From a phage: a DNA stretch of 45,609 nucleotides. Shown in pieces: positions 4,849 through 45,292 of the stretch (positions are counted from its first letter, which is position 1; each line of letters opens with the position of its first letter). The stretch lies in the NCBI GenBank assembly GCA_030873995.1, contig GCA_030873995.1_4701.1, one strand, 5' to 3'. Under the pieces are notes generated by a model. It ran no database searches, was not told the DNA's origin, and was given only the letters and a program-made list of their open reading frames with translations. Both the position numbers and the translations under genes were made by a program.

Positions 4849-4871
4849 ATTTACTGGACACTATAGAAGGG
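4849..4871 (+). promoter_or_regulatory. phage-RNAP promoter ATTTACTGGACACTATAGAAGGG (capsid promoter)
   Basis: Exact consensus; +1 G at 4866; followed by 5' hairpin GGGAGAAAAGTTCTCCC (4869..4885). Confidence 0.85.
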
Positions 4872-4921
4872 AGAAAAGTTCTCCCTAGTTATCAATTTGA
4901 TTTATAAGGAGATTATAACAC

Positions 4922-6130
4922 ATGTCTACACCGAATACTCTGACTAACGTTGCTGTATCTGCATCCGGTGAGGTTGACAGTCTTCTCATTGAGAAGTTTA
5001 ATGGTAAGGTGAATGAGCAGTACCTGAAAGGTGAGAACATTCTGTCTTACTTTGATGTACAAACTGTTACTGGCACTAACACAGTGAGCAACAAATATTT
5101 GGGCGAAACTGAGTTGCAGGTGCTAGCACCGGGTCAGTCTCCTAATGCCACCCCTACTCAGGCGGATAAAAACCAGTTGGTAATTGATACCACTGTCATT
5201 GCTCGTAACACTGTGGCTCACATCCACGATGTACAAGGTGACATCGATAGCCTGAAACCAAAACTGGCTATGAACCAAGCCAAGCAACTGAAACGTCTGG
5301 AAGACCAGATGGCAATTCAGCAGATGCTGTTAGGCGGTATTGCTAACACCAAGGCCAAACGTGACAAGCCGCGTGTTAAAGGGCATGGCTTCTCTATCAA
5401 CGTTAACGTAACTGAGAGTGAAGCACTGGCTAACCCTCAGTATGTTATGGCTGCGGTAGAGTATGCTCTGGAGCAACAGCTTGAGCAGGAAGTGGACATC
5501 TCTGATGTAGCTATCATGATGCCGTGGAAGTTCTTCAATGCTCTGCGTGATGCAGACCGAATTGTAGATAAGACTTACACTATCAGCCAGTCTGGTGCAA
5601 CCATTAATGGCTTCGTTCTCTCTTCTTATAACTGCCCTGTGATCCCGTCTAACCGGTTCCCTACCTTCGCTCAGAATCAGGCTCACCACCTGTTGTCTAA
5701 TGAAGATAACGGCTATCGTTATGACCCTATCGCAGAGATGAATGGTGCAGTTGCTGTTCTGTTCACTGCCGACGCACTGCTGGTGGGTCGTACCATTGAA
5801 GTGACTGGTGACATCTTCTATGAGAAGAAAGAGAAGACTTATTACATTGACACCTTCATGGCTGAGGGTGCAATCCCTGACCGTTGGGAAGCAGTGTCTG
5901 TAGTCACTACTAAGCGTAATGGTACTACTGGTGTCGCAGATGGAGAAGGCACAGACCACGCCACTGTTCTGTCCCGTGCGCAGCGTAAGGCTGTATATGT
6001 CAAGACCGCAGGTGCTGCGGCTGCATTCTCTGCTGCACCAGCAGGTATCCAAGCGGAAGACCTTGTAGCGGCGGTACGTGCTGTAATGGCAAATGACATC
6101 AAGCCGACTGCACTGAAACCTACTGAGTAA
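4922..6130 (+). CDS. major capsid protein
   Basis: 402 aa; own phage promoter with 5' hairpin upstream, strong hairpin terminator downstream; T7 gp10 position. Confidence 0.85.
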   Translation: MSTPNTLTNVAVSASGEVDSLLIEKFNGKVNEQYLKGENILSYFDVQTVTGTNTVSNKYLGETELQVLAPGQSPNATPTQADKNQLVIDTTVIARNTVAHIHDVQGDIDSLKPKLAMNQAKQLKRLEDQMAIQQMLLGGIANTKAKRDKPRVKGHGFSINVNVTESEALANPQYVMAAVEYALEQQLEQEVDISDVAIMMPWKFFNALRDADRIVDKTYTISQSGATINGFVLSSYNCPVIPSNRFPTFAQNQAHHLLSNEDNGYRYDPIAEMNGAVAVLFTADALLVGRTIEVTGDIFYEKKEKTYYIDTFMAEGAIPDRWEAVSVVTTKRNGTTGVADGEGTDHATVLSRAQRKAVYVKTAGAAAAFSAAPAGIQAEDLVAAVRAVMANDIKPTALKPTE

Positions 6131-6139
6131 TAACCTATG

Positions 6140-6175
6140 CCCTATCTACCTTGCGTAGGTAGGGTTCTTTTGTTT
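6140..6175 (+). terminator. late hairpin terminator after the capsid gene
   Basis: 10-bp stem CCCTATCTAC/GTAGGTAGGG, 5-nt loop, then TTCTTTTGTTT. Confidence 0.75.
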
Positions 6176-10056: not shown

Positions 10057-12999
10057 ATGGCAATTGAACGTCAAGCTGTACAAGGTTTAGAAAGAGTACA
10101 GTCAAGGGGTGCGCCAATGCCTATGTCTTTCACACCACGACAAGTGAGTATCTCAGGGGGCGCTGATGCCTCCGGTAGTAGATTTTTGGAAGACTTAGTA
10201 AACGCCGCAAGTAGTGTGGCTGATGTCACTACTGCTATCCTTAATCAGCAAGTAGAAGACGATAAGGTTCGCCAGATGGATAGGGCTTTGTCTGGCATGA
10301 TGCCTTCTGAGGATGCCACGGTAGGCGGTGCTCGTGCTCATATGCTGGTTAGTTTACAAAATGATGTAATCGCACAGACAACTGCGCTACAAGCAGAAGC
10401 ACAGCGATTTCAAGGTAGTGACGAGGATTGGGAAAACTATGTAGTTCAATCTCGTAATGAGGTACAAAATAGGTTATGGCAAAGTTATCCAGAGCTTCGT
10501 GGTGACAAAGATTCTATGAGGCTTGTCACTAACGCGTTCATGGAGCAGCAACCTAGAATTACTGCAACTAGAGCAGAGGCTAAACTTCGTCAAGAAGAAG
10601 AAGCACGAATGCAATCTATGCAGTCTCGTATTATCATGGCTACAAGGGACGTAGCGCCAGATGCCACTGGTGCAGCTCTTATCCAGCTACAAAAAGAAGC
10701 ACTGGCGATGGGTCTTAGTAAACCTGAGTTTGATCAAATGGTTGCTAAGATTGCATCTGAAAGAGCGGCAGTAGGAGATGATAGTCTTATTCAGGGAACC
10801 AAGGCATTGGTGGATGATAAGGGTGTCTCTTTGTATGACCGTGTTGGTGCTTTGCAAACTGGAGAAATTCAAGCTAACAGAACTTGGGCTGCTCAGAATC
10901 AGGTTGCCCTCTTCGAGAAGAAAGATGCAGCTATAAAGGCATTCGATGCAGGGCAACTTACTCGCGAAGAGTTACTTCAGGTGATGCAGAATCACAATGA
11001 ATTGACTGGTGGCACTGCTTGGTCTGATAGCGAGATCAAGGCTATCTTCGATAGGCAAGCTAAGGTTAATGCAGAGAAAGCAAAGCTAGAAGATCTTATT
11101 GCACGAGGTGAATCTGGGTCGCCTTTAGGCTTACAGGACATTAGTAAGGATGACAGAAAGACATATGCTGAAGCCTTAGTTAGTACCTACACTAAGCTGG
11201 CAGAAGATGAAATTGCCCGTACTGGTGCAACGGGAGAACAGGCTGAAGCTATTCGCGGTAGGTATGAGCAGATGCGTTATCTTAAATTGGGTCAACAGCT
11301 TATTGAAGACCCGATCATTAAGGAAAGGTATTCGTCGCTTATGCAGCTATCCTCTGCCAACCTCAAGGATATGAATGTTGAACCTGAAGCACTGCAAACT
11401 ATCATGCGAGCACGTGATTCTATTCCAGAGGATGCACGTCGTGCTGTTATGGGAGACAAAGAATATGCCTTTGTTGAGAACTATGACTTAGCAACTCGCA
11501 TGGGGTATAACACAGGTCAAGCTATTGAGTTTGCACAGAATGCCTCTCGCGGCGAGAAATTACAAGGTTCTGTGCTCAAAGAACTTAATGATGATGTAGA
11601 TGGAGTAGTTAGTGACATTGCAGGAGGCAGCTGGCTCACTTTTGGTGATAACATGAGTGAAATGGGACGTGACATTATGATGGAGGAGGCAAGTACAATT
11701 GCTAGAGCAATGAAGGTTGCAGGCCATAATAATGACACTATTAAGCGTCACCTTAAATCCTACCTTACAAGCCAGTATACACAATTATCAGAAGGTTTCT
11801 TTACTCAAGGTGTTCTTGTAAAAGGAGACATTCGTACGTTAGGAGATACTATAGGAGTAAACCAAGGAGACGTCCCAATTACTCTCCGTCAGTACCTAGA
11901 TAATAACAAACAAGCCCTGCTAGATGCATCAGGTGGGTTAGAGGAAGGCGACCTATATTTTGATGTAGATGCGAAGCGCGGCCTCTTTACTATACGTGCA
12001 GGCTCTGGTCGTGTGCCTGTTACACAGGCAATGCCTTTGTCTGAAATCAAAGGGCAATCCTTGCTTAAGCAACGGTATGATGCAGAGGTTAAAGCACGTG
12101 ATGAAGGGCGTAAGAACTTTGAAGCACAACAAATGCGAATGTGGGGCGCAGGTGGCTACCAAGCACAACCACCTGCAAAGACTACAGCCAAAACTGTAGG
12201 CTCACGTGGGATTGCTGACTTCTTAATGTCACCTGCCTTTGCATCAGGCGAGAATCTACCAGCAAACTTTGAGTTCGGATATAAGAGAAATAATATGGAC
12301 TTCTACAATTATGTAGCCAAGATGGAGAATAATGCCAATGTAGGTTTTGACCGAGTAGCTGGTGTTTATACACCATACAAAGATGCACATGGTCAGTCTG
12401 TAGGGTACGGTCACTTCCTTACTACTGAAGAGAAGAAGAACGGATACATTATGATTGGTACAGAGAAAGTGCCATTCACTCCGGGACAATCTCAATTAAC
12501 ACCAGAACGAGCCATGCGCCTTCTACAGCAAGACTTGAAGAGTCATGTGCCAAGTACTTCAGGATGGGCTGTTCCCTTCGAAGAGATGCACCCAGGTGTT
12601 CAGCGTGGCCTTATGGACTTGTCCTATAATTTAGGAAAAGGCGGGATCCAGAATGCTCCTAAGGCATACGCTGCATTTAAGGCTGGCAAGTTTACTGATG
12701 GCTTCATCGAGATGCTATCTACTGCATCTACTGAAGGCAAGCGCAGCACTGGATTGTTAGTTCGTAGGGCGGAAGCTTATAACCTTGCACAGAGTGGTGG
12801 TGCTATCCCTAAGATTAGTGAAGTGGAGACACGAGCAGATGGATCTATGTATGTGAAGTTTGCAGGACAGATGTCAGAGGCTTTCGTAAATAAATCAATC
12901 TACAATCAGATTGGTAAGGATGGGTGGATGCAAGTGTATCCTCCAAAGCAAGGTGCACTTGCACCTAACACTCAGATTGGTAGAATCAAACTGAGCTAG
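10057..12999 (+). CDS. internal virion protein (gp15-like) with C-terminal T4-lysozyme-like (GH24) domain
   Basis: 980 aa; region GQSVGYGHFLTTEE...GVQRGLMDLSYNLGKGG aligns to the T4 lysozyme core as recalled. Confidence 0.7.
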   Translation: MAIERQAVQGLERVQSRGAPMPMSFTPRQVSISGGADASGSRFLEDLVNAASSVADVTTAILNQQVEDDKVRQMDRALSGMMPSEDATVGGARAHMLVSLQNDVIAQTTALQAEAQRFQGSDEDWENYVVQSRNEVQNRLWQSYPELRGDKDSMRLVTNAFMEQQPRITATRAEAKLRQEEEARMQSMQSRIIMATRDVAPDATGAALIQLQKEALAMGLSKPEFDQMVAKIASERAAVGDDSLIQGTKALVDDKGVSLYDRVGALQTGEIQANRTWAAQNQVALFEKKDAAIKAFDAGQLTREELLQVMQNHNELTGGTAWSDSEIKAIFDRQAKVNAEKAKLEDLIARGESGSPLGLQDISKDDRKTYAEALVSTYTKLAEDEIARTGATGEQAEAIRGRYEQMRYLKLGQQLIEDPIIKERYSSLMQLSSANLKDMNVEPEALQTIMRARDSIPEDARRAVMGDKEYAFVENYDLATRMGYNTGQAIEFAQNASRGEKLQGSVLKELNDDVDGVVSDIAGGSWLTFGDNMSEMGRDIMMEEASTIARAMKVAGHNNDTIKRHLKSYLTSQYTQLSEGFFTQGVLVKGDIRTLGDTIGVNQGDVPITLRQYLDNNKQALLDASGGLEEGDLYFDVDAKRGLFTIRAGSGRVPVTQAMPLSEIKGQSLLKQRYDAEVKARDEGRKNFEAQQMRMWGAGGYQAQPPAKTTAKTVGSRGIADFLMSPAFASGENLPANFEFGYKRNNMDFYNYVAKMENNANVGFDRVAGVYTPYKDAHGQSVGYGHFLTTEEKKNGYIMIGTEKVPFTPGQSQLTPERAMRLLQQDLKSHVPSTSGWAVPFEEMHPGVQRGLMDLSYNLGKGGIQNAPKAYAAFKAGKFTDGFIEMLSTASTEGKRSTGLLVRRAEAYNLAQSGGAIPKISEVETRADGSMYVKFAGQMSEAFVNKSIYNQIGKDGWMQVYPPKQGALAPNTQIGRIKLS

Positions 13000-17838: not shown

Positions 17839-17991
17839 ATGATTAACTCCGAACTGGTAGATAATGGTGTGAAGCTTGCGCCACCTGCACTCGTATCAGG
17901 TGGGTACTTCCTCGGTATCAGTTGGGATAACTGGCTCGTAATTATGACCCTTATTTACACAGTAATGCAAAATGGGTTGGTTTATTTATGA
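17839..17991 (+). CDS. holin, T7 gp17.5-like
   Basis: 50 aa, one TM segment; GGYFLGISWDNWLVIMTLIYTVMQNG resembles the T7 gp17.5 core as recalled; AAGGAGGTGGG RBS. Confidence 0.6.
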   Translation: MINSELVDNGVKLAPPALVSGGYFLGISWDNWLVIMTLIYTVMQNGLVYL

Positions 17992-18027
17992 GAAGGTCCA
18001 GACTATAAAGAAGAGGAGAAAAGCTAA

Positions 18028-18459: not shown

Positions 18460-18755
18460 GCGTACATAACAAACATGCAGCTACAGAAGACGAGGTTGGC
18501 ATTCTGCATGGTGCTATTACCAAAATCTTCAATAAGAAAGCACAGGCAATACTGGACACTATAGAAGAAGACCCTGATGCAGCACTACATTTAGTCTCTG
18601 GTAAAGACATTGGTGCTATGTGTAAGTGGGTACTGGATAACGGCATCACTGCTACACCTGCTGCACAGCAGGAAGAGTCCAAGTTATCTAAGCGCCTCAA
18701 GGCTATCCGAGAGGCATCCAGTGGTAAGATAATTCAATTCACTAAGGAGGATTGA
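18456..18755 (+). CDS. terminase small subunit (gp18-like), start codon uncertain (TTG)
   Basis: 99 aa ORF immediately upstream of and overlapping the terminase large subunit. Confidence 0.5.
   Translation: MSVHNKHAATEDEVGILHGAITKIFNKKAQAILDTIEEDPDAALHLVSGKDIGAMCKWVLDNGITATPAAQQEESKLSKRLKAIREASSGKIIQFTKED
18547..18569 (+). promoter_or_regulatory. phage-RNAP promoter inside the terminase small subunit gene
   Basis: CAATACTGGACACTATAGAAGAAG; matches consensus from -14 to +6, diverges at -17 to -15. Confidence 0.55.
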
Positions 18756-20653
18756 TGGCTAAGGCAAGAGAATCACAAGCGGAGGCTCTTGCCAGATGGG
18801 AGATGCTACAGGAGTTACAGCAGACCTTTCCTTACACAGCGGAAGGTTTGCTTCTCTTTGCAGACACAGTTATTCATAACTTGATTGCAGGCAACCCTCA
18901 TCTGATTCGTATGCAGGCTGATATCTTGAAGTTCCTATTCTACGGACACAAGTACCGCCTCATCGAAGCGCCTCGTGGTATCGCTAAGACAACACTATCA
19001 GCAATCTATACGGTATTCCGTATTATTCATGAACCGCATAAGCGTATCATGGTTGTGTCCCAAAACGCCAAGCGAGCAGAGGAAATCGCAGGTTGGGTAG
19101 TTAAAATCTTCCGTGGCTTAGACTTTCTTGAGTTTATGCTGCCGGATATCTACGCTGGGGACCGTGCATCCGTTAAGGCGTTTGAGATTCATTACACCCT
19201 ACGTGGTAGTGATAAGTCTCCTTCTGTATCCTGTTACTCAATCGAAGCAGGTATGCAGGGTGCTCGTGCTGATATTATTCTAGCGGATGACGTAGAGTCG
19301 ATGCAGAATGCTCGTACGGCAGCGGGCCGTGCCTTGCTTGAGGAACTGACTAAGGAGTTTGAATCTATCAACCAGTTTGGGGATATCATTTACCTTGGTA
19401 CACCTCAGAACGTAAACTCTATCTACAACAACCTACCTGCTCGTGGTTACTCTGTTCGTATCTGGACTGCGCGTTACCCTTCAGTAGAGCAAGAGCAATG
19501 TTATGGCGACTTCCTTGCACCTATGATTGTTCAAGATATGAAGGACAACCCAGCACTTCGCTCAGGGTACGGGTTGGATGGTAATAGTGGTGCACCTTGT
19601 GCCCCTGAAATGTATGATGATGAAGTCCTGATTGAGAAGGAAATCTCTCAGGGTGCTGCTAAGTTCCAGCTTCAGTTCATGCTTAACACTCGCATGATGG
19701 ATGCTGACAGATACCCATTACGCCTGAACAATCTAATCTTCACCTCGTTTGGTACAGAGGAAGTCCCTGTGATGCCTACGTGGAGTAATGATTCCATAAA
19801 CATCATTGGTGATGCACCTAAGTATGGTAACAAGCCTACGGATTTCATGTACAGACCTGTAGCTCGCCCATACGAATGGGGTGCTGTCTCCCGCAAGATT
19901 ATGTATATTGACCCTGCGGGTGGTGGTAAGAACGGAGATGAGACGGGTGTAGCCATCATATTCCTGCACGGCACATTCATTTATGTGTATCAGTGCTTTG
20001 GTGTACCTGGCGGATACCGAGAGTCGTCCCTGAATCGCATTGTGCAGGCCGCAAAGCAGGCGGGTGTTAAAGAGGTATTCATTGAGAAGAACTTTGGTCA
20101 TGGAGCGTTTGAGGCGGTAATTAAGCCGTACTTTGAACGAGAGTGGCCTGTAACTCTGGAAGAGGATTACGCCACCGGACAGAAAGAGTTGCGTATCATT
20201 GAGACGCTGGAGCCGCTCATGGCAGCCCATAGGCTTATCTTCAATGCAGAGATGGTGAAGTCAGACTTTGAGTCGGTACAGCACTATCCGCTTGAACTAC
20301 GCATGTCCTACAGTCTTTTCAATCAAATGTCGAACATAACGATTGAGAAGAACAGCCTCCGGCACGATGACCGCCTAGACGCCCTGTATGGCGCTATACG
20401 GCAATTAACTTCTCAGATAGACTATGACGAGGTTACACGGATTAATCGCCTCAGAGCGCAGGAGATGCGCGATTACATCCATGCTATGAATACACCTCAT
20501 CTACGCAGGGCAATGCTATATGGAGATTACGGTACTGAGCGAAGAGTGACCAACACTTCCGTAGCGATGCAGCAGCGAGTTTACGGGCAGAACTGCCGAA
20601 ATAAATCGGCAAGCAGAAATACACTTTCTGCAAGGATTTCAAGGACTTATTAA
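18755..20653 (+). CDS. terminase large subunit
   Basis: 632 aa, T7 gp19-like; AAGGAGG RBS; start overlaps upstream stop. Confidence 0.9.
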   Translation: MAKARESQAEALARWEMLQELQQTFPYTAEGLLLFADTVIHNLIAGNPHLIRMQADILKFLFYGHKYRLIEAPRGIAKTTLSAIYTVFRIIHEPHKRIMVVSQNAKRAEEIAGWVVKIFRGLDFLEFMLPDIYAGDRASVKAFEIHYTLRGSDKSPSVSCYSIEAGMQGARADIILADDVESMQNARTAAGRALLEELTKEFESINQFGDIIYLGTPQNVNSIYNNLPARGYSVRIWTARYPSVEQEQCYGDFLAPMIVQDMKDNPALRSGYGLDGNSGAPCAPEMYDDEVLIEKEISQGAAKFQLQFMLNTRMMDADRYPLRLNNLIFTSFGTEEVPVMPTWSNDSINIIGDAPKYGNKPTDFMYRPVARPYEWGAVSRKIMYIDPAGGGKNGDETGVAIIFLHGTFIYVYQCFGVPGGYRESSLNRIVQAAKQAGVKEVFIEKNFGHGAFEAVIKPYFEREWPVTLEEDYATGQKELRIIETLEPLMAAHRLIFNAEMVKSDFESVQHYPLELRMSYSLFNQMSNITIEKNSLRHDDRLDALYGAIRQLTSQIDYDEVTRINRLRAQEMRDYIHAMNTPHLRRAMLYGDYGTERRVTNTSVAMQQRVYGQNCRNKSASRNTLSARISRTY

Positions 20654-20674
20654 TTACTGGACACTATAGAAGGA
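20652..20674 (+). promoter_or_regulatory. phage-RNAP promoter after terminase
   Basis: AATTACTGGACACTATAGAAGGA; +1 G at 20669. Confidence 0.8.
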
Positions 20675-22313: not shown

Positions 22314-22336
22314 ATTTACTGGACACTATAGAAGAG
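22314..22336 (+). promoter_or_regulatory. phage-RNAP promoter for the tailspike genes
   Basis: ATTTACTGGACACTATAGAAGAG exact consensus; +1 G at 22331. Confidence 0.85.
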
Positions 22337-26999: not shown

Positions 27000-27686
27000 C
27001 CAAAGGTGGTCACAAAGTAACCAAAGTCAAAATTTTGATGTAGGCGTGTGTGAGGTGTCTCGCCCTCGCCCTCGCCGGGTTGTCCCCATAGGGTGGCCTG
27101 AGGGAATCCGTCTTCGACGGGCAGGGCTGATGTACTCCTTGCCTAGTACAAGGGAGGCGGAGTGAACGCCTGGGACGGCCTAGGGAATGGCTTAGTGGTG
27201 GACAAGGTGATTACCTTAGTGAAGCCTCTTAGTGCATTCCTTAGGCCATTCAGGGCGTTTATGAGGTATTGACAGGGTGGATGGGTGTGGGCTATCTGTT
27301 CGTTTCGCTACGCTTCACTCACTGCTCCTCACTTCGTTCGTCGCTGCGGTAGCCTGATGTGTACCTTAGGTTATTACTTGATGGATAGCTTAGGTTAGCC
27401 TTAGTGGATTACCTTAGTTAAAGCCTTAGTGCTTCACTTAGTATCAGCTTAGTAGTGTACCTTAGTCAGACTTAGTGTCTTCTCTTAGTGATTGCATAGC
27501 TAAAGCTATAAGATGCAAATAGGTCGCGGTCGGTAGACCGCTAAAGAAAGAGAATGGTAATAAGATGCAGTAGGAGGAACACCAGAAACCTAGCCAACCT
27601 AAGCTATCCTAGCTCTATATCTATTGCTTTTCCTTAGTCTAACACGTTAGACAACCTATCTTATTCTTAGTGATGGTAACTTAGTG

Positions 27687-27715
27687 TTGACAAGATAATC
27701 TTAGTGTAATACTAT
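27687..27715 (+). promoter_or_regulatory. sigma70-type early promoter candidate
   Basis: TTGACA, 17-bp spacer, TACTAT; first strong host-type promoter after the repeat-rich terminal region. Confidence 0.55.
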
Positions 27716-28557: not shown

Positions 28558-28653
28558 TTAGATGGTAGCTTCTTAGTCTGGATAGGTTAAACCTAGGGTA
28601 TTCTTTTGAGTACCCTATAATGTAACCTAACTAACTAAATGAGGATTAATAAC

Positions 28654-29013
28654 ATGGCTATGTCTAATATGACTTACTCTCAGGTTTACAACAACGCTCA
28701 TGCTGCATTAGTTGAACGTATCTGGAATGATGCTATTGATTGTATTGATAACGCACATGATGCAATCCATGATGTGGCGGATAGTGCTGTACCAATCTAT
28801 TATGCTGACATCTTCTCCGTGATGGCGAGTGAAGGAATTGATCATTTCTTCGAAGACTCCGGCCTGATGCCAGACACTAAGGATGTAACGGTAGTATTGC
28901 AAGCCCGTATCTATGAGCAACTCACAATTGATCTATGGGAACGTGTTCAGTATATGATTGTTGAATACATCAACTCCGCCGAATATTTAGAAGAAGAAGA
29001 AGAGGAAGAATAA
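28654..29013 (+). CDS. ocr: Ocr (T7 gp0.3) DNA-mimic anti-restriction protein
   Basis: MAMSNMTY...[49 protein letters not shown] closely matches T7 Ocr as recalled; poly-Glu tail; GAGGA RBS. Confidence 0.9.
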
Positions 29014-29014: not shown

Positions 29015-29128
29015 ATGGAAAAGCTATACAACTTTATCTTTTCAGACGGTGTAACCCTGAAGTGTTCCCTACGATTCGCACAAATTCGTGAGGAAGTACT
29101 AGGCACTACATACAAACTATTTAGCTGA
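29015..29128 (+). CDS. small ORF (37 aa) directly after ocr
   Basis: ATG 2 nt after the ocr stop; no homology recognised. Confidence 0.35.
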   Translation: MEKLYNFIFSDGVTLKCSLRFAQIREEVLGTTYKLFS

Positions 29129-29141
29129 CACTATAAGAGAA
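29119..29141 (+). promoter_or_regulatory. variant phage-RNAP promoter candidate with A at +1
   Basis: ATTTAGCTGACACTATAAGAGAA; three mismatches at -12 to -10; lies in the early region upstream of the RNAP gene. Confidence 0.4.
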
Positions 29142-30482: not shown

Positions 30483-33110
30483 ATGCAAGACCTACACGCT
30501 ATTCAACTTCAACTTGAAGAAGAAATGTTTAACGGAGGTATCCGTCGCTTTGAAGCGGACCAACAACGCCAGATTGCATCCGGTAATGAATCCGACACGG
30601 CATGGAATCGCCGCTTATTGTCTGAGTTAATCGCGCCAATGGCTGAAGGCATTCAGGCATACAAGGAAGAGTATGAAGGTAAAAGAGGCCGTGCACCGCG
30701 TGCATTAGCTTTCATTAACTGCGTAGAAAACGAAGTGGCAGCATATATCACGATGAAAATCGTTATGGATATGCTGAACACGGATGTAACCTTGCAGGCT
30801 ATAGCCATGAATGTAGCTGACCGCATTGAGGACCAAGTACGTTTTAGCAAGCTGGAAGGTCACGCCGCCAAATACTTTGAGAAAGTTAAGAAGTCACTTA
30901 AGGCAAGTAAGACTAAATCATATCGCCATGCGCACAACGTAGCGGTCGTGGCTGAGAAGTCAGTAGCTGACCGTGACGCTGATTTCTCTCGCTGGGAGGC
31001 GTGGCCTAAAGATACCTTGCTACAAATCGGTATGACCTTGCTAGAAATACTGGAAAATAGTGTATTCTTCAATGGTCAGCCTGTCTTTCTTCGCACCTTG
31101 CGCACTAATGGTGGCAAGCATGGCGTTTACTACTTACAGACTAGCGAACACGTGGGTGAATGGATAACTGCATTTAAAGAGCACGTAGCTCAGCTGAGTC
31201 CAGCCTATGCGCCTTGCGTTATTCCTCCTCGTCCGTGGGTTTCTCCGTTTAATGGTGGCTTCCATACCGAGAAAGTGGCGAGTCGTATTCGTCTGGTTAA
31301 AGGAAACCGCGAGCACGTCCGCAAGCTGACCAAAAAGCAAATGCCAGCGGTTTACAAGGCTGTTAACGCTTTGCAGGCGACTAAGTGGCAGGTTAATAAA
31401 GAGGTTTTGCAGGTAGTAGAGGACGTTATCCGTCTCGACCTTGGTTATGGTGTGCCTTCCTTTAAACCGCTCATCGACCGTGAGAACAAGCCAGCTAATC
31501 CAGTGCCGTTAGAGTTCCAGCACCTGCGAGGCCGTGAACTTAAAGAGATGCTAACGCCGGAACAATGGCAAGCCTTCATCAACTGGAAAGGCGAATGTAC
31601 CAAGCTGTATACCGCTGAAACTAAGCGCGGCAGCAAGTCGGCGGCAACCGTTCGTATGGTCGGGCAGGCCCGTAAATACAGCCAGTTTGACGCAATATAC
31701 TTCGTGTATGCACTGGATAGCCGTTCACGCGTTTATGCGCAATCTAGCACGCTCTCGCCGCAATCAAACGACTTAGGCAAGGCATTGCTCCGTTTTACCG
31801 AAGGGCAGCGTCTTGATAGCGCTGAGGCGCTTAAGTGGTTTTTGGTGAACGGGGCGAATAACTGGGGTTGGGATAAGAAAACTTTTGACGTGCGCACCTC
31901 TAACGTGCTGGATGGCGAATTTCAAGACATGTGCCGCGACATTGCAGCCGATCCGCTGACCTTCACTCAATGGGTAAATGCTGATTCCCCTTACGGCTTC
32001 CTTGCATGGTGCTTTGAATATGCGCGTTATCTGGATGCACTGGATGAAGGCACGCAAGACCAATTCATGACGCACCTACCCGTCCATCAAGACGGTAGTT
32101 GCTCTGGTATCCAGCACTATAGCGCGATGTTACGCGATGAAGTAGGTGCGAAAGCAGTAAACCTTAAGCCTTCTGACTTCCCTCAAGATATTTATGGCGC
32201 GGTTGCGCAGGTTGTTATCCAGAAGAATTACGCCTACATGAATGCAGACGATGCAGAGACTTTCACATCTGGAAGCGTCACACTTACAGGTGCAGAACTG
32301 CGTAGCATGGCTAGTGCGTGGGATATGATAGGAATAACTCGCGGATTGACCAAAAAGCCCGTAATGACACTACCTTATGGCAGCACACGTCTAACCTGCC
32401 GTGAATCAGTGATTGATTATATCGTTGATTTGGAAGAAAAAGAGGCCCAACGAGCTATTGCGGAAGGGCGTACCGCCAATCCTGTACACCCTTTTGATAA
32501 TGACCGTAAGGACAGCCTGACACCTAGCGCAGCTTATAACTATATGACAGCTTTAATCTGGCCTTCTATTTCGGAAGTGGTTAAAGCTCCTATAGTGGCA
32601 ATGAAAATGATTCGTCAGCTTGCCCGTTTCGCAGCTAAAAGGAATGAAGGCTTAGAGTATACCTTGCCTACTGGCTTCATCTTGCAACAAAAGATTATGG
32701 CTACTGATATGCTCCGCGTATCCACTTGCCTGATGGGAGAAATCAAGATGAGTCTACAGATTGAAACGGACGTAGTGGATGAAACGGCTATGATGGGCGC
32801 TGCTGCTCCTAACTTTGTGCATGGTCATGATGCCAGTCACCTTATCTTAACAGTCTGCGACCTTGTTGATAAAGGGATTACATCTATCGCAGTCATTCAT
32901 GATTCTTTCGGTACTCACGCAGGCCGTACAGCCGATCTTCGTGATAGCTTAAGGGCAGAAATGGTGAAGATGTATCAAGGCCGTAATGCCCTGCAAAGCC
33001 TGTTAGATGAGCATGAAGAACGCTGGTTAGTAGACACCGGAATCCAAGTGCCAGAGCAAGGAGAGTTTGACCTTAACGAAATCTTAGTATCTGACTATTG
33101 CTTCGCATAA
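30483..33110 (+). CDS. single-subunit DNA-dependent RNA polymerase (T7/SP6 type)
   Basis: 875 aa; [17 protein letters not shown] and HDSFGT catalytic motifs; C-terminus ends CFA. Confidence 0.95.
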
Positions 33111-33118
33111 TATTAATA

Positions 33119-33149
33119 GGCCATTCCTTCGGGAGTGGCCTTTTCTTTT
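33119..33149 (+). terminator. intrinsic terminator after the RNAP gene (early terminator analog)
   Basis: 9-bp stem GGCCATTCC/GGAGTGGCC with UUCG tetraloop, then TTTTCTTTT. Confidence 0.8.
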
Positions 33150-33201: not shown

Positions 33202-33224
33202 ATTTACCGGACACTATAGGATAG
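33202..33224 (+). promoter_or_regulatory. phage-RNAP promoter (origin-flanking, upstream copy)
   Basis: ATTTACCGGACACTATAGGATAG; C at -11; palindrome 33184..33199 abuts it. Confidence 0.75.
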
Positions 33225-33385: not shown

Positions 33386-33408
33386 ATTTACCGGACAGTA
33401 TAGATAAG
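33386..33408 (+). promoter_or_regulatory. phage-RNAP promoter (origin-flanking, downstream copy)
   Basis: ATTTACCGGACAGTATAGATAAG; G at -5; palindrome 33365..33380 abuts it. Confidence 0.6.
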
Positions 33409-33433: not shown

Positions 33434-33562
33434 ATGCGTAACTTTGAGAAGATGACCCGTAAAGCTAACCGTTTTGACATGGAAGAAGGGCAGAAGAAAG
33501 GCAAGAAGCTGAATAAACCTGTCCGTGACCGTGCATCTAAACGCGCTGCGTGGGAGTTCTAA
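33434..33562 (+). CDS. T7 gp1.1-like small basic protein
   Basis: 42 aa MRNFEKMTRKANR... matches the T7 gp1.1 N-terminus as recalled; same position after RNAP and twin promoters. Confidence 0.6.
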   Translation: MRNFEKMTRKANRFDMEEGQKKGKKLNKPVRDRASKRAAWEF

Positions 33563-33565: not shown

Positions 33566-35554
33566 ATGGCTATTATTCAGAATGTACCGTGTCCTGCTTG
33601 CCAAAAGAACGGACATGATATTACTGGCAATCATTTAATGATCTTTGACGACGGGGCAGGGTACTGTAACCGTGGTCACTTCCATGATAACGGTAAACCT
33701 TATTACCACAAGCCGGAAGGTGGCATCGAGATAACCGAGTTACCTATTACTGGCAATATCAAATATACACCTTCTCAATTCAAAGAAATGGAGAAGGAAG
33801 GGAAGATAAGCGACCCTAAGCTACGCGCCATCGCACTTGGTGGTATGCGTATGAAAGACCGTTGGGAGGTTATGAATGAGCAAGAAAGGGCAGACCAAGA
33901 AGCAGAGTGGAAACTTGATGTTGAATGGTTCCTCACGCTTAAGCGTAAGAACCTTGTATCCCGTCACATTCGAGGTGACATCGCAGCAATGTACGATGTG
34001 CGCGTTGGACACGATGAAGAGGGAAGAGTCAACCGTCACTATTATCCACGATATGAAAAGGGTGTGTTTGTTGGAGCAAAATGCCGGACGTTGCCGAAGG
34101 ATTTTAAGTTCGGACACCTAGGTAAACTCTTTGGTATGCAAGACCTTTTCGGTATGAACACTTTGTCTCACGTGTTAGACAAGGGGAGACGAAAGGATTG
34201 CTTGCTTATTGTAGGCGGTGAACTTGATGCACTAGCAGCGCAGCAGATGCTCCTTGATTCTGCCAAAGGTACTAAGTGGGAAGGTCAGCCATACCATGTA
34301 TGGTCTGTCAATAAAGGTGAGTCTTGCCTTGAAGAGATAGTGCAAAACCGTGAGCACATAGCCCAATTCAAGAAGATTATATGGGGCTTTGATGGCGACG
34401 AGGTGGGGCAGAAGCAGAACCAACAAGCTGCTCGCCTGTTTCCTGGCAAATCCTACATCCTCGAATATCCATCTGGTTGCAAAGATGCTAACAAGGCATT
34501 GATGGCTGGCAAGGCTAAAGAGTTTGTAGATGCATGGTTTAATGCCAAGTCATCTGATGAAGTCTTTGGTAGCCAGATTAAATCTATCGCATCTCAAAGG
34601 GATAAGCTCAAGGCTGCACGTCCAGAGCAAGGACTATCATGGCCTTGGCCTAAGCTGAACAAGGTAACGCTAGGTATTCGTAAGAACCAACTTATCATTG
34701 TAGGCGCAGGCTCTGGTGTAGGTAAGACTGAGTTCCTTCGTGAAGTAGTTAAGCACCTCATTGAAGAACACGGTGAATCTGTAGGCATCATTTCTACAGA
34801 AGACCCGATGGTCAAGGTGTCCCGTGCTTTTATCGGCAAGTGGATTGATAAGCGTATTGAGTTACCGCCAACCAACGACCCGAAAGAAGATGGATACCGT
34901 GAGGTGTTCGACTACACCGAGGAAGAGGCTAACGCCGCCATTGATTATGTAGCTGATACAGGTAAGCTGTTTGTAGCTGACCTAGAGGGTGACTATTCGA
35001 TGGAAAAGGTAGAGCAAACTTGCCTAGAGTTTGAGGCTATGGGCATTTCTAATATCATCATTGATAACTTAACGGGGATTAAATTAGATGAGCGTGCTTT
35101 TGGTGGGAAGGTTGGTGCACTTGATGAATGCGTCAAGCGGATTGGTACTATCAAAGACCGACACCCGGTTACTATATTCCTTGTATCACACCTTACACGT
35201 CCTCCGGCAAACCGTACCCAACACGAAGAAGGTGGCGAGGTTATCCTTTCTGACTTCCGAGGTTCAGGCGCTATCGGATTCTGGGCATCTTACGCCTTGG
35301 GGATTGAGCGTAATACAAGAGCTGAAACGCTTGATGAACGGACTACCACGTACATCTCATGTGTCAAAGACCGCGACCAAGGTATCTACACTGGAACCAA
35401 GGTCATGCTTAAGGGTGACATTCAAACCGGACGTTTAATGGAACCACAAGCCCGTACTAAGTCATTTGATACAGGTGAAGCAAGGCAACAAGAAGTGCCG
35501 GATTTACCGGACACTATAGAAGAGACAACTTTTGACGATGAACAGGAGTTTTAA
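33566..35554 (+). CDS. DNA primase/helicase (gp4-like)
   Basis: 662 aa; N-terminal Cys4 zinc ribbon, Walker A GAGSGVGKT; acidic C-terminus ending DDEQEF. Confidence 0.9.
   Translation: MAIIQNVPCPACQKNGHDITGNHLMIFDDGAGYCNRGHFHDNGKPYYHKPEGGIEITELPITGNIKYTPSQFKEMEKEGKISDPKLRAIALGGMRMKDRWEVMNEQERADQEAEWKLDVEWFLTLKRKNLVSRHIRGDIAAMYDVRVGHDEEGRVNRHYYPRYEKGVFVGAKCRTLPKDFKFGHLGKLFGMQDLFGMNTLSHVLDKGRRKDCLLIVGGELDALAAQQMLLDSAKGTKWEGQPYHVWSVNKGESCLEEIVQNREHIAQFKKIIWGFDGDEVGQKQNQQAARLFPGKSYILEYPSGCKDANKALMAGKAKEFVDAWFNAKSSDEVFGSQIKSIASQRDKLKAARPEQGLSWPWPKLNKVTLGIRKNQLIIVGAGSGVGKTEFLREVVKHLIEEHGESVGIISTEDPMVKVSRAFIGKWIDKRIELPPTNDPKEDGYREVFDYTEEEANAAIDYVADTGKLFVADLEGDYSMEKVEQTCLEFEAMGISNIIIDNLTGIKLDERAFGGKVGALDECVKRIGTIKDRHPVTIFLVSHLTRPPANRTQHEEGGEVILSDFRGSGAIGFWASYALGIERNTRAETLDERTTTYISCVKDRDQGIYTGTKVMLKGDIQTGRLMEPQARTKSFDTGEARQQEVPDLPDTIEETTFDDEQEF
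35502..35524 (+). promoter_or_regulatory. phage-RNAP promoter embedded in the primase/helicase C-terminal coding tail
   Basis: ATTTACCGGACACTATAGAAGAG, encodes DLPDTIEE. Confidence 0.75.
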
Positions 35555-35787: not shown

Positions 35788-36471
35788 ATGTATAAATTAG
35801 TATTGAATGTAGGTGATTATGTTCGTAACATCAATGAAGCCTCACGTCGTTATCGTTGCCGTGGTGTAGTGGCTCGTGTAAGTGAGAACATGTATCATGT
35901 AGAATATGATGATGGTATTAAGGCTTCTTATCACAAGAAAACCGCACATAAATATCTTGAAAAGGTTGTAGAGGTAAACAATCAATGTAAGTGCATACAT
36001 GATGAGGTTTGCGATAAATGTGCTCGCCAGATGCTTAAGAATTTCCTAGCCCCTCTTTATTATGGTGCTGGTCCTCAAACACTAGCAGAGTACATGGCAG
36101 AAAAGAAAACCACACTCAAGAAAGAGCGTCGCAATGTAATCACTGGTAAGACTCAAAGTGGGATGATTAAGCAATGTGGCACTGCATTAGGTGTTACACA
36201 GTTCAATACTCGTGCATTGGGTAAATCCACAGGGCAAGCTATGGTGAAAATTGGTGAAGCTATGATGCACCCAAATGTGCCTGTGCGAATCTTGGATGTT
36301 GACCATGCAATCACAGAGCATGGCACACCACGGCGTGTAGCTAATAATCATTTCGCCGACACTATAGAAGGTATTATTCGTAAGCAAGGGTTGAAGGGTC
36401 TTCACATCTTAAATGGTGAAGAATTACTGTACCTACCTATCGTTACTGAAGAAACATACGTGAATATCTAA
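35788..36471 (+). CDS. hypothetical protein (227 aa)
   Basis: GGAG RBS before ATG 35788; Cys cluster CKCIHDEVCDKC; contains a degenerate promoter-like site. Confidence 0.55.
   Translation: MYKLVLNVGDYVRNINEASRRYRCRGVVARVSENMYHVEYDDGIKASYHKKTAHKYLEKVVEVNNQCKCIHDEVCDKCARQMLKNFLAPLYYGAGPQTLAEYMAEKKTTLKKERRNVITGKTQSGMIKQCGTALGVTQFNTRALGKSTGQAMVKIGEAMMHPNVPVRILDVDHAITEHGTPRRVANNHFADTIEGIIRKQGLKGLHILNGEELLYLPIVTEETYVNI
36350..36372 (+). promoter_or_regulatory. degenerate promoter-like site inside CDS 35788..36471
   Basis: ATTTCGCCGACACTATAGAAGGT; four mismatches at -13 to -10. Confidence 0.25.
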
Positions 36472-40051: not shown

Positions 40052-40074
40052 ATTTACTGGACACTATAGAAGGA
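40052..40074 (+). promoter_or_regulatory. phage-RNAP promoter
   Basis: ATTTACTGGACACTATAGAAGGA exact consensus; +1 G at 40069. Confidence 0.85.
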
Positions 40075-40138: not shown

Positions 40139-40516
40139 ATGTCAATGGTAACTACTCTGGTATTCGTAGCTCAATACTTTCGTGGTTTGGCTAACAAGTT
40201 CAAAGCTAAGGCTATCAAAGCTATTGAGTCTCGCATTGAAGCAGTACATGCAGAGCAGTTTGAAGTTGAAGAACATCGTAGTTCTCAAATGATTGACTGC
40301 CACAATCGCTACTATGCATCTCGTGATGACCTTAATGCACGCCAAGTCAAAGAGGTTGAAGAGATGCTGGCACGTCACCAGCAAGAGCGAGACAGCCTGA
40401 AAGCTGAATTTGAAGAGAACAAGGCATCCATCGCCCTTGTACATCAAGCCGCATCTGACAGCCTGAAGAAAGAGATTGTTATGCTGGAAATTGAGTTAGA
40501 CAACCTGACCAAATAA
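40139..40516 (+). CDS. hypothetical coiled-coil protein (125 aa)
   Basis: Own promoter at 40052 and AT-rich leader with GGAG RBS. Confidence 0.55.
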   Translation: MSMVTTLVFVAQYFRGLANKFKAKAIKAIESRIEAVHAEQFEVEEHRSSQMIDCHNRYYASRDDLNARQVKEVEEMLARHQQERDSLKAEFEENKASIALVHQAASDSLKKEIVMLEIELDNLTK

Positions 40517-40537
40517 TTACTGGACACTATAGAACAA
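40515..40537 (+). promoter_or_regulatory. phage-RNAP promoter
   Basis: AATTACTGGACACTATAGAACAA; +1 G at 40532. Confidence 0.8.
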
Positions 40538-41628: not shown

Positions 41629-41629
41629 A

Positions 41630-41645
41630 GTCTCACGTGTGAGAC
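41630..41645 (+). repeat. 16-bp near-palindrome GTCTCACGTGTGAGAC (copy 6), 15 bp upstream of promoter 41661
   Basis: Read directly. Confidence 0.9.
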
Positions 41646-41660
41646 AAATTGGTGTCCGGT

Positions 41661-41683
41661 ATTTACTGGACACTATAGAAGAG
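41661..41683 (+). promoter_or_regulatory. phage-RNAP promoter
   Basis: ATTTACTGGACACTATAGAAGAG exact consensus; palindrome 41630..41645 upstream. Confidence 0.85.
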
Positions 41684-42105: not shown

Positions 42106-42169
42106 TAATAGCAGGTGTTGCCTCTGTTAGTCCTGGTTGACTATCACGCTCATCTCATCTAATGCCCTG

Positions 42170-42196
42170 TCTGCCTTAGTGTAGGCAGGGTCTTTT
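42170..42196 (+). terminator. hairpin plus T-run, terminator candidate
   Basis: 7-bp stem with 6-nt loop followed by TCTTTTG. Confidence 0.35.
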
Positions 42197-42513: not shown

Positions 42514-43451
42514 TAGATGCTGATATGTTACCCTATATTGTAGGATATACTATCAGTGACATGACTTATGTACGAGCCACAACTCGTGTTAAGTCAGGAC
42601 AAGTCCCATCAATCAAGGATACACCTGAATGTAAGCAAGCATGTGACCGTGTGAACTCCTTGCTTAACTCTTGGGTGTATGCAGCAGAGTGCGATGCAGC
42701 TAAGTTATTCATGACGAAATCAGAAGCTAACTTCCGTGTTCGCCTAGCATTCACCAAGCCTTACAAGGGTCAACGTAAGACCGAGAAGCCTCCATTCTTC
42801 TATGAATTGCGAGAGCATCTCTTAGAGGTTCATGGTGCAATCTTGGCTGATGGTGAGGAAGCAGATGACCTAATGAGCATCGCACAATGGGACAGCCATC
42901 GCCGCTTCCAGCAAGATACAGGTAACGAGTTCCCTATCGGTAGTCCAGAGCATAAAGCATTCTCTGATACTTGCATCGTTTCCTTAGATAAGGATTTGAT
43001 GATTGTTCCCGGTTGGCATCTACAGCCGGGAGGTGAGAAGAAATGGGTAGAGCCTATGGGTTGGCTTGAGCTACGCCGCAAGGCTAATGGTCAAGTGAAA
43101 GACCTTAAAGGTGCTGGCCTCATGTTCCACTATGCACAGATGATTATTGGTGATGACATAGATAATTATGCTGGCATACCGGGACGTGGTGCTAAATATG
43201 CCTATGCTCTTCTCAAAGACTGTAAGACAGAGAAAGAATTGTACATGGCAGTGCTTGGTGCATACAAGGCTAAGTTCGGTCATGGACAAGTTAAGATTAA
43301 GAATTACCGAGGTGGTTATCGTATCGGCAAAGCCTTTGACCTGATGCTTGAATGTGGTCGCCTAGCTCACATGGCAAGATTCAAAGGGGACATATGGCGG
43401 GCCGATAAGAACCCAATCTTGTGGGGAGATGACGATGGATGGATGCATTGA
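42426..43451 (+). CDS. 5'-3' exonuclease (gp6-like, FEN family)
   Basis: Motifs RIALIDADML, GEEADDLMSIA, SLDKDLMIVPG, GDDIDNYAGIPG; GAAGGAG RBS before ATG 42426. Confidence 0.8.
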   Translation: MRPNFDFGATVSEDNNLLLWPTEGNRIALIDADMLPYIVGYTISDMTYVRATTRVKSGQVPSIKDTPECKQACDRVNSLLNSWVYAAECDAAKLFMTKSEANFRVRLAFTKPYKGQRKTEKPPFFYELREHLLEVHGAILADGEEADDLMSIAQWDSHRRFQQDTGNEFPIGSPEHKAFSDTCIVSLDKDLMIVPGWHLQPGGEKKWVEPMGWLELRRKANGQVKDLKGAGLMFHYAQMIIGDDIDNYAGIPGRGAKYAYALLKDCKTEKELYMAVLGAYKAKFGHGQVKIKNYRGGYRIGKAFDLMLECGRLAHMARFKGDIWRADKNPILWGDDDGWMH

Positions 43452-43872
43452 CCATGGGTGTAAAGGTTATGGCATGGGCTACGCTACTGCCTTCTATAAA
43501 GGTAGATGTGGTAAGAAGAAATATACCACTAAGCACAGGCTAGTTTACTGTAAGCACCATAACATTCACCCTGAAGATTTGCCTAAAGATATTGTTATTA
43601 GGCACAAATGTGATAATGCACGTTGTATCAATCCTTTACATTTAGAGTCTGGTACACATCAAGATAACATGAAGGACATGGCTGTCCGTGGCAGAGCCTA
43701 CAAAGGAGGGATGCCAGGAGAAAAGAATGGCAGATGTGTGCTTTCTGATTTACAAGTAGCAGAATTACGCGCCTTACGTGCTAAAGGGTTTACTTGTAAA
43801 GCTCTAGCTGAACGGTATGGCATAGGTACTACTCAAGTATCTAGACTAGCAAGAGGAGAACAACGTGCGTAA
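43435..43872 (+). CDS. HNH endonuclease with C-terminal helix-turn-helix
   Basis: HKCDNARCINPLHLESGTHQDN motif; GGGGAG RBS before ATG 43435. Confidence 0.7.
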   Translation: MDGCIDHGCKGYGMGYATAFYKGRCGKKKYTTKHRLVYCKHHNIHPEDLPKDIVIRHKCDNARCINPLHLESGTHQDNMKDMAVRGRAYKGGMPGEKNGRCVLSDLQVAELRALRAKGFTCKALAERYGIGTTQVSRLARGEQRA

Positions 43873-44275
43873 GATGAAGCAATCTGAACTTGGTGAAGTT
43901 CGTGATATACTGTGTGAAAGACAAGGTTGGCGTTGCCCTATTTGTGGAGGTCATTTAAAACTTATCTCTAAAGCAAATAGGGTCGTTGACCATTCACACG
44001 ATAATGTAGGTGCAGTCCGTGGTGTATTATGCCGTGGGTGCAATGGAGGTATCGGCAAGATAGAAGCGTATGCACAGTCGTATTGTAAGGCTGGCAATAA
44101 TACGCTTGAGGTTATCAAAGTTCTACGTAATCTTGCGGACTACTTAGAACTCCATCGCACACCGCAGACAGAGTGGATTTATTACAAACATCAAACGGAG
44201 GCAGAGAAACGAGAGGCTAAGAATCGTAAGGCTCGCCTTGCTTATGCAAGAAAGAAGGAGGCTAAGAGTGGCTAA
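43865..44275 (+). CDS. recombination endonuclease VII-like (Holliday junction resolvase)
   Basis: CPICGG...VVDHSHDN...RGVLCRGCNGG signature. Confidence 0.75.
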   Translation: MRKMKQSELGEVRDILCERQGWRCPICGGHLKLISKANRVVDHSHDNVGAVRGVLCRGCNGGIGKIEAYAQSYCKAGNNTLEVIKVLRNLADYLELHRTPQTEWIYYKHQTEAEKREAKNRKARLAYARKKEAKSG

Positions 44276-45275
44276 ACTTCGTAGCCTTTATAAAGACTCC
44301 GAGGTGCTTGATGCAATCGAGCAAGCTACCGACGAGAAAGGTAATGTTAACTATAATGAGATGGCGAAGATCCTATCTAGCCACCCTGTGGGTAAGAAGA
44401 TCACCCGTCAACTTGCTCGGTATTGGCATGGTCAATTTAAGAAGACCAAGAAGAATGGCGATTACTACCAGACTCTTCTGCAAGAGGATAAGCGTATCAA
44501 AGAAGAGCGTAAGCTCAGGACTCCTGACCGCTACGAGGATTTGGCTATTGTACCATTGCCTGACTCGCCTCATCGAAGTGTACTGGTAATCCCTGATACT
44601 CATGCACCTTATGAGCACCCAGATACCCTAGAGTTCCTTGCAGCCGTGGCGGCACGTTACCGTCCAGACACAGTGGTACACCTAGGAGATGAGGCAGACA
44701 AACATGCCCTGTCATTCCACGATTCGGACCCAAATCTGGATAGTGCTGGCATGGAGCTAGAGAAGGCTCGTGTCTTCATGCACAAGTTGCACAAGATGTT
44801 CCCTGTGATGCGCCTGTGTCATTCTAATCACGGCTCTATGCACTTCCGTAAGGCAAGCGCCAAGGGTATTCCAGTGCAATATCTTCGCACCTACCGTGAA
44901 GTCTTTTTCCCAAATGGAGGTGGCGACCAGTGGGATTGGCAGCATACACATGTTCTTGAGTTGCCGAATGGTGAACAAGTGGCATTCAAGCATCAACCTG
45001 CTGGCTCTGTCCTAGCAGATGCAGCGCATGAGCGTATGAACCTTGTGTGTGGTCACTTGCACGGTAAGATGTCTGTGGAGTACGCACGTAATACACATGA
45101 ACAGTATTGGGCTGTGCAAGGTGGCTGCTTAATTGATGAGTCATCCCGTGCATTTGCCTATGGGCGTGAGTCTAAATACAAGCCAGCATTAGGTTGTGTG
45201 GTTATTCTGGAGGGTGTACCTCATATTGTCCCGATGCAAACCAATAGCGACAACCGTTGGATTGGCAAGATTTAG
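44268..45275 (+). CDS. calcineurin-like metallophosphoesterase with about 100-aa N-terminal extension
   Basis: Motifs IPDTH, GDEAD, SNHG, GHLHG; AAGGAGG RBS 7 nt before GTG 44268. Confidence 0.65.
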   Translation: MAKLRSLYKDSEVLDAIEQATDEKGNVNYNEMAKILSSHPVGKKITRQLARYWHGQFKKTKKNGDYYQTLLQEDKRIKEERKLRTPDRYEDLAIVPLPDSPHRSVLVIPDTHAPYEHPDTLEFLAAVAARYRPDTVVHLGDEADKHALSFHDSDPNLDSAGMELEKARVFMHKLHKMFPVMRLCHSNHGSMHFRKASAKGIPVQYLRTYREVFFPNGGGDQWDWQHTHVLELPNGEQVAFKHQPAGSVLADAAHERMNLVCGHLHGKMSVEYARNTHEQYWAVQGGCLIDESSRAFAYGRESKYKPALGCVVILEGVPHIVPMQTNSDNRWIGKI

Positions 45276-45292
45276 TTGACACTATAGAACAA
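45270..45292 (+). promoter_or_regulatory. phage-RNAP promoter, SP6-like variant
   Basis: ATTTAGTTGACACTATAGAACAA; differs from the local consensus at -12 and -10. Confidence 0.6.

Follow-up and report, generated by a model that had tools for sequence, protein, structure and literature searches.

The 45,609-nucleotide phage contig analyzed here (GCA_030873995.1_4701.1; this whole stretch is called the window, and coordinates refer to it) encodes a single-subunit T7-type RNA polymerase and carries a set of predicted promoters for it, with the consensus ATTTACTGGACACTATAGAAG, which departs from the promoter of phage SP6 at positions -12 to -10. This promoter set and its polymerase are, with a probability of about 95%, those already described for the coliphages K1-5, K1E, LL11, and EEc4; the observation is real but already known, from phages in print since 2004. 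By its sequence, the window holds the entire genome, in circular permutation, of a coliphage of the K1-5/K1E/LL11 group (Autographiviridae, Molineuxvirinae, Vectrevirus), which we compared with the reference genomes of K1-5 (AY370674 / NC_008152), K1E (AM084415), LL11 (NC_048064), EEc4 (ON210145), SP6 (NC_004831), and T7 (NC_001604).

A search with ATTTACTGGACACTATAGAAG at <=3 mismatches returns 10 matches, all on the + strand, against an expectation of 0.00 from 100 shuffles, and four of these (4849, 22314, 40052, and 41661) are exact. Scanning with the core GACACTATA adds 29119, 33386, and 36350, giving 13 sites in total, from 4849 to 45290 on the + strand:

4849..4869, + strand: promoter, exact consensus, 5' of the major capsid gene (4922-6130)
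18547..18567, + strand: promoter CAATACTGGACACTATAGAAG, within the small-terminase gene, 5' of the large-terminase gene
20652..20672, + strand: promoter AATTACTGGACACTATAGAAG, where the large-terminase gene ends
22314..22334, + strand: promoter, exact consensus, 5' of the tailspike 1 gene (22356-24314)
29119..29139, + strand: early-region promoter-like site ATTTAGCTGACACTATAAGAG, with A at +1, kept in all relatives
33202..33222, + strand: promoter ATTTACCGGACACTATAGGAT, the first past the early terminator, 2 nucleotides (nt) 3' of a 16-nt palindrome
33386..33406, + strand: promoter variant ATTTACCGGACAGTATAGATA, 5' of the gp1.1-like gene
35502..35522, + strand: promoter ATTTACCGGACACTATAGAAG, inside the primase/helicase gene at its 3' end
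36350..36370, + strand: promoter ATTTCGCCGACACTATAGAAG, a core-scan match
40052..40072, + strand: promoter, exact consensus, 5' of gene 15
40515..40535, + strand: promoter AATTACTGGACACTATAGAAC, 5' of gene 16
41661..41681, + strand: promoter, exact consensus, 5' of gene 18, with a palindrome (41630-41645) just before it
45270..45290, + strand: promoter ATTTAGTTGACACTATAGAAC, 5' of the nucleotide kinase (gp1.7-like) gene

All 13 sites lie at or just before gene starts, in turn those of the capsid, large terminase, gene 41, tailspike 1, and gene 5, with the remaining sites preceding the gp1.1-like gene (two sites), genes 9.5, 10.5, 15, 16, and 18, and the nucleotide kinase gene. When +1 is taken as the G of GAAG, the bases that differ from SP6 are -12, -11, and -10. 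The triplet at these positions is CTG at seven sites in the window, CCG at three, and GCT, GCC, and GTT at one each, as opposed to GGT (five sites), GGG (two), AGG, and AGT in the SP6 genome, which has no CTG site. The difference from SP6 at -12 to -10 (CTG/CCG versus GGT/GGG), on which the initial annotation of this DNA had built, is therefore confirmed.

The same arrangement recurs throughout the group. K1-5, K1E, LL11, and EEc4 each contain exactly four copies of ATTTACTGGACACTATAGAAG, at four homologous positions (for the promoter at 4849, these are K1-5 22852, K1E 24431, LL11 23074, and EEc4 23178), and the SP6 and T7 genomes contain zero exact copies. The weaker sites likewise correspond one to one across the relatives: CAATACTGGACACTATAGAAG is also present at K1-5 35488, K1E 37182, and LL11 36324, and the variant at 33386 is conserved at K1-5 6204, K1E 7008, and LL11 6145. 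The tallies of the -12 to -10 triplets are near-identical in the five Vectrevirus genomes. In IMG/VR, the exact 21-mer has 45 further copies in a Vectrevirus context; the exact SP6 consensus has 22 matches there, all on SP6-like phage contigs and none in prophages. A further promoter-like sequence, TATTTACTTACACTATATAAG, lies at 29466-29486, 5' of gene 6, and is common to K1E and EEc4. Being 1 nt shorter than its K1-5 counterpart, ATTTACTTAACACTATATAAG, and starting with T at +1, this site is probably weak or inactive.

The polymerase and its promoter-reading segment map as follows:

30483..33110, + strand: single-subunit T7-type RNA polymerase, 875 amino acids (aa), from identity comparisons
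32685..32786, + strand: specificity loop of the polymerase, residues 735-768, from the alignment

The enzyme is 100% identical to that of EEc4 and differs from those of LL11, K1-5, and K1E by 4, 7, and 13 residues, respectively; its identity is 86% to SP6 polymerase and 35% to T7 polymerase. All five Vectrevirus enzymes (window, K1-5, K1E, LL11, and EEc4) have the same specificity loop. The equivalent of T7 N748 is Ser747 (32721-32723), a serine also in K1-5 and K1E, whereas SP6 has Arg746. At the T7 756/758 equivalents, Lys755 and Ser757 are found in the window, with Lys and Ser in SP6 too, and the T7 R746 equivalent is conserved in the alignment. The combination at the equivalents of T7 748/756/758 is thus Ser/Lys/Ser, that of the K1-5/K1E class, and Arg/Lys/Ser in SP6. 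Because T7 N748 reads -10 and -11, the Ser/Arg change would be the obvious candidate for the cause of the CTG/GGT difference. The suggestion in the initial annotation that the specificity loop reads the divergent positions is reasonable to the extent that the loop differs from SP6 at the N748 equivalent; the assignment of residues to bases is carried over from T7 and SP6. In the T7 promoter complex, base contacts are made from specificity-loop residues R746, N748, R756, and Q758, of which positions 748, 756, and 758 define specificity groups family-wide, and the K1E and SP6 polymerases fall into separate specificity clusters (PMC11880802).

That the polymerase-promoter specificity might be new, and unseen in known phages, was suggested by the departure of the consensus from SP6 at -12 to -10. 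We consider this reading practically negligible. Known phages with the same consensus and the same gene content do exist, namely K1-5, K1E, LL11, and EEc4, and the claim of novelty fails because their consensus is the same, their copies of it lie at homologous positions, and their polymerases are 99-100% identical to that of the window; the 45 additional Vectrevirus-context copies in IMG/VR argue in the same direction. What does weigh against the main reading, that of a known system, concerns the isolate as a whole: no whole-genome match is present in the phage collection, the best among the compared genomes being LL11 at 85.5%, so that the isolate itself is, by its sequence, new. It may represent a separate species, which would be unremarkable for Vectrevirus. 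The genome papers on K1-5 (Scholl et al. 2004) and K1E (Stummeyer et al. 2006) reportedly contain promoter tables. The K1E polymerase is used with a "K1E promoter" in the C3P3 expression system (PMC6412113), and the K1-5-type promoter TATTTACTGGACACTATAGGAGGA, chosen for an SP6-related polymerase (No. 2049, see below), has served in vitro (PMC13029058). When the literature was searched in full text for the 21-mer, the palindromes, and promoters of phage polymerases carried by prophages, PMC13029058 alone was returned, and no promoter sequences were found in PMC4640515 or PMC4837284. Initiation at promoters of this type has been published for related enzymes (PMC6412113, PMC13029058), and the 13 sites of the window are predicted promoters of its own polymerase.

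How far this known specificity is separated from that of SP6 is a different matter. The CTG/GGT difference could reflect a shift in consensus without strict orthogonality, such that K1-5-type polymerases also read SP6 promoters, a reading we regard as possible, at somewhat less than even odds. For an SP6-related polymerase, No. 2049, with its own consensus TATTTACTGGACACTATAG... (also given as TATTTACTGGACACTATAGG...), the SP6 promoter yielded 3.5% of the reference signal and the enzyme's own consensus ~2% (PMC13029058), and the promoters of the window themselves tolerate GCT, GCC, and GTT at -12 to -10. Because the activity of No. 2049 with the SP6 promoter is no lower than with its own (PMC13029058), functional distinctness from the SP6 promoter class appears doubtful. 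The kinship of No. 2049 to the window polymerase is, however, not stated in that report, the data cover one direction only, with low signals (PMC13029058), and the Ser/Arg difference at the N748 equivalent co-varies with promoter class (PMC11880802), all of which speaks against a mere shift.

The initial annotation further described the genome as an SP6-like/T7-like mosaic, with an SP6/K1-5-like gene order and T7-like ocr, gp1.1, gp1.7, and holin genes. Comparison by tblastn of every tiling open reading frame (ORF) against the six references shows the gene order to be collinear with SP6, K1-5, K1E, LL11, and EEc4, as had been proposed. The genes in question, besides the kinase gene that crosses the window ends (see below), are the following:

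28639..29013, + strand: ocr-like anti-restriction gene, LL11/EEc4 allele (PHROG 2568, E=1e-46)
33434..33562, + strand: gp1.1-like small gene, 100% identical to K1E, 74% to SP6, 56% to T7
17839..17991, + strand: class II holin gene, 50 aa, shortened by an adjacent HNH insertion

A recent mosaic, in which T7-like (Studiervirinae) donors contributed ocr, gp1.1, gp1.7, and holin to an SP6-like backbone, could draw on two observations: the Ocr of the window is 65% identical to that of T7 and only 48-49% to those of K1-5/K1E, and the gp1.7-like kinase matches T7 at 66%, a match limited to its C-terminal 42%. We nevertheless judge such an origin very improbable. The four genes occupy the same positions in SP6, K1-5, K1E, LL11, and EEc4, and the SP6 record itself annotates ocr-like, gp1.1, nucleotide kinase, and holin genes. 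For every one of the "T7-like" genes, the closest match comes from the SP6 group and lies at a syntenic position. Ocr is 91-92% identical to its LL11/EEc4 counterparts and 60% to that of SP6; the gp1.1-like protein is closer to SP6 than to T7; the kinase is 99% identical to that of K1-5; and the holin is 74% identical to that of SP6, the intact LL11 copy being 30% identical to T7 gp17.5 (E=4e-9). Overall, the four genes are 85-100% identical to the best SP6-group relative versus 30-70% to T7, values that do not describe a mosaic between subfamilies, and nucleotide similarity to T7 over the whole genome is 1.7%. Homologues of the four T7 genes (ocr at 65-70% identity) are present, but all four also occur in SP6/K1-5, at the same positions, and the mosaic reading is not supported. 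These genes are best understood as shared family inheritance and do not point to a T7 donor.

The exchanges that are seen involve lineages of Vectrevirus and of Zindervirus, the genus of SP6. For gp35 and gp36, the internal virion proteins (10057-12999 and 13067-16870), identity is 99-100% with LL11 and 81-88% with SP6, as opposed to 37-43% with K1-5/K1E/EEc4; here, a module has been exchanged between the Vectrevirus lineage and that of SP6. The real mosaicism of the genome lies within the subfamily, with an LL11-like late module joined to an EEc4/6948-like early module. Megablast of both window halves against 50,697 phage records assigns the window to Vectrevirus and is consistent with this division: window 20-24413 aligns to LL11 with 95.7% identity across 95% of its length, and window 24000-45609 aligns to EEc4, to 6948, and to several "Vectrevirus" records with 95-97% identity at 80-90% coverage.

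Intergenomic similarity is 85.5% to LL11, 73.7% to EEc4, 70.8% to K1-5, 64.0% to K1E, 61.8% to SP6, and 1.7% to T7, so that similarity to LL11, EEc4, and K1-5 exceeds the genus level of the International Committee on Taxonomy of Viruses (~70%), with collinear genes. LL11 shares its structural half with the window and EEc4 its early/replication half (~97%), and both have the same promoters, but neither matches the entire genome. K1-5 and K1E resemble the window in consensus, in the four exact homologous copies, in a 99% identical polymerase with an identical loop, and in gene order. The window differs from both in its Ocr allele and second tailspike, has gp35/gp36 of the SP6 type, and carries two additional HNH genes. 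SP6 shares the architecture, the promoter core GACACTATAG, and the ocr, gp1.1, gp1.7, and class II holin genes, and is set apart by its promoter triplet, by Arg instead of Ser at the N748 equivalent, and by its lower overall similarity. With T7, the window has in common early genes presumably read by the host polymerase, a single-subunit polymerase, same-strand promoters, terminator-like hairpins past the polymerase and capsid genes, and homologues of portal, terminase, and others in addition to the four genes discussed above, whereas the polymerase (35%), the promoter (unrelated upstream of -7), and the nucleotide sequence are distinct.

The permutation of the window is evident from its ends and its middle. 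The nucleotide kinase (gp1.7-like) gene crosses the window ends (45358-45609 joined to 1-270), and circularizing the window restores a 173-aa kinase, the one that is 99% identical to K1-5's. EEc4 position 1 aligns to window 27058, next to the following element:

27060..27294, no strand assigned: homologue of the 234-bp direct terminal repeat of K1-5, in single copy in mid-window

Because the kinase gene spans the ends and because the terminal repeat and the EEc4 start map to mid-window, the window is a circular permutation. A duplication at the ends would not be visible in the window, a circularized assembly with one copy of the terminal-repeat sequence; these alignments place the physical left end of the genome at ~27059/27060. 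The span from 4849 to 45292 that had been singled out is merely the distance from the first to the last promoter in this permutation. The + strand carries all tiling ORFs as well as all 13 promoters.

Vectrevirus affiliation is also apparent from an adaptor gene (16867-17829, 99% to LL11) and two tailspike genes (22356-24314 and 24399-26582), a trait of the genus. Tailspike 1 is 98% identical to the K5 lyase of K1-5. Tailspike 2 (727 aa) is unlike its counterparts in LL11, K1-5, K1E, and EEc4 (17-23% coverage), and its region has DNA matches to phages 6948 and LI10P3. Together, the two tailspikes suggest a host range of K5 plus another capsule.

The window also carries two HNH endonuclease genes. 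An HNH homing-endonuclease gene at 18028-18459 (PHROG 59, E=6e-35), absent from K1-5, K1E, LL11, EEc4, and SP6, lies between the holin and small-terminase genes; the diverged tract beside it (window 17930-18460) replaces the 3' end of the holin gene, reducing the product from 64 to 50 aa, and the small-terminase start codon is TTG instead of GTG. The other gene, at 43429-43872, is 31% identical to T7 gp7.7 and likewise absent from the five relatives. It adjoins the endonuclease VII gene (region 43429-44275), which is only 56-64% identical to the relatives' copies.

Candidate signals for host and phage transcription flank the polymerase, capsid, and gene 18 regions:

27687..27715, + strand: sigma-70-type early promoter candidate, TTGACA-17-TACTAT (pattern match only)
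28271-28299: second sigma-70-type candidate, just inside the left end (pattern match only)
33118..33141, + strand: early terminator analogue, a strong hairpin plus T-run directly past the RNA polymerase gene
6139..6165, + strand: T-phi analogue, a terminator-like hairpin past the capsid gene
42164-42191: similar hairpin, past gene 18

This layout would fit the standard transcription programme of the T7 supergroup, with the order of events taken from T7 and SP6. Host RNA polymerase would read the early genes from the sigma-70 promoters (~27.7 kb) via ocr to the phage RNA polymerase gene, and early transcription would halt at the hairpin at 33118-33141. The phage polymerase would then transcribe the middle and late genes from the 13 same-strand K1-5/K1E-type promoters, with CTG at -12 to -10 presumably marking the strong late promoters and CCG, GCT, GCC, and GTT the early/middle ones.

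A second repeated element accompanies the promoters. The perfect 16-nt palindrome GTCTCAC-NN-GTGAGAC is present in 8 copies, as compared with 0.14 expected:

13017-13032: palindrome copy
27637-27652: palindrome copy
33184-33199: palindrome copy
33365-33380: palindrome copy
34165-34180: palindrome copy
35733-35748: palindrome copy
36877-36892: palindrome copy
41630-41645: palindrome copy

The copies are nearly always intergenic, and three of them lie 2-15 nt 5' of promoters. Their positions are conserved in K1-5, K1E, LL11, and EEc4, and SP6 has a compensated form, GTCCAAC-NN-GTTGGAC. Because folding of the palindrome as RNA is weak (z about -1), it may equally well be bound by a protein as form a hairpin. 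The literature search found no mention of a role for this palindrome.

The promoter also occurs outside phages of this genus. The exact 21-mer has 111 matches in IMG/VR, in 102 stretches, and 66 of the 111 lie outside Vectrevirus genomes. These 66 copies share one context, consisting of the 13-bp hairpin CTTGTCCAACACGTTGGACAAG, 13 nt, the promoter, and a 48-nt leader that has a strong ribosome-binding site, ends in AAGGAGG, and is followed by ATG. The host contigs are lambdoid, HK97-like prophages, in which this module sits between HNH/terminase genes on the opposite strand and an iss/bor lipoprotein gene on the same strand. Examples are:

E. coli M217 (NZ_AP019189.1, around 2,772,999-2,773,019), locus L131: module 5029-5440, promoter 5066-5086, iss 5438-5731
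L009: module 3925-4160
L132 (SfIV): module 532-582
L134: module 1520-1581

A 71-nt hairpin-plus-promoter query finds the module in 535 of 5426 complete E. coli genomes (~10%), in 424 of them at >=99% identity, and the region is unannotated. The module is lacking among the species representatives of GTDB, where the K1-5-type promoter has 0 exact matches and a degenerate scan yields 21 scattered matches in unrelated taxa, about the chance expectation. It is homologous to the palindrome-plus-promoter unit 5' of gene 18 of SP6-like phages, as found at window 41630-41681 and in Klebsiella phage KpnP_VR702. When prophage variants are sampled by their downstream flank and not by the promoter, the following promoter versions are obtained:

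ATTTACTGGACACTATAGAAG: n=60, exact K1-5 consensus
ATTTAATGGACACTATAGAGG: n=9
ATTTACTGGACAGTATAGGAG: n=8
ATTTAGGTGACACTTTAGAAG: n=7, Shigella phage SfIV; SP6-type triplet plus a change at -3
ATTTACTGGACACTACAGAAG: n=5
AATTAATGGACACTATAGAGG: n=2

An alignment of 23 distinct haplotypes, covering only the exact, ATG, and GGT promoter variants, shows that variation clusters in paired compensatory changes of the hairpin, at promoter positions -12 to -10, and at -3 and +3, with the 51-nt leader nearly invariant. The 40-aa ORF 3' of the prophage promoter has no PHROG match, and over its first 20 codons ~14 residues differ between the E. coli and SfIV copies, as judged by eye from an alignment. This ORF is probably not a conserved protein.

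The prophage module is most likely a recombination scar. Alternatively, it could be a working target that responds to the polymerase of an infecting K1-5/SP6-like phage and fires only on infection. A working module of this kind would act as an exclusion or abortive-infection sensor or as a decoy, and an arms race with the polymerase specificity classes would then account for the CTG, GGT, and ATG promoters and the compensatory hairpin variants. We consider this unlikely: some variants alter core positions, the promoter is directed away from the late genes of the prophage, the 40-aa ORF lacks both conservation and a family match, and no sampled phage has the ATG variant as its consensus. When the ATG variant, ATTTAATGGACACTATAG, was considered as the consensus of another SP6-like phage, only single matches were found, mostly in the same prophages, so that a "tracking" of phage consensus sequences by this variant is unsupported. 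In IMG/VR, the exact T7 promoter matches little beyond T7-like genomes and short fragments. A triple array of T7 promoters, the only one inspected (L176), looks like the end of a T7-like genome and not like a prophage. The literature search found no paper describing the prophage module.

For the family, then, this genome is one more intra-subfamily recombinant in a well-sampled genus, in which a promoter-polymerase pair is merely re-identified: that of K1-5/K1E has already been sequenced, classed as its own specificity cluster, and brought into use in biotechnology. The conserved, promoter-associated palindrome without a described role presents a lead. If functional, the prophage module would be a natural case of a resident element wired to the polymerase of an invading phage, in ~10% of complete E. 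coli genomes.

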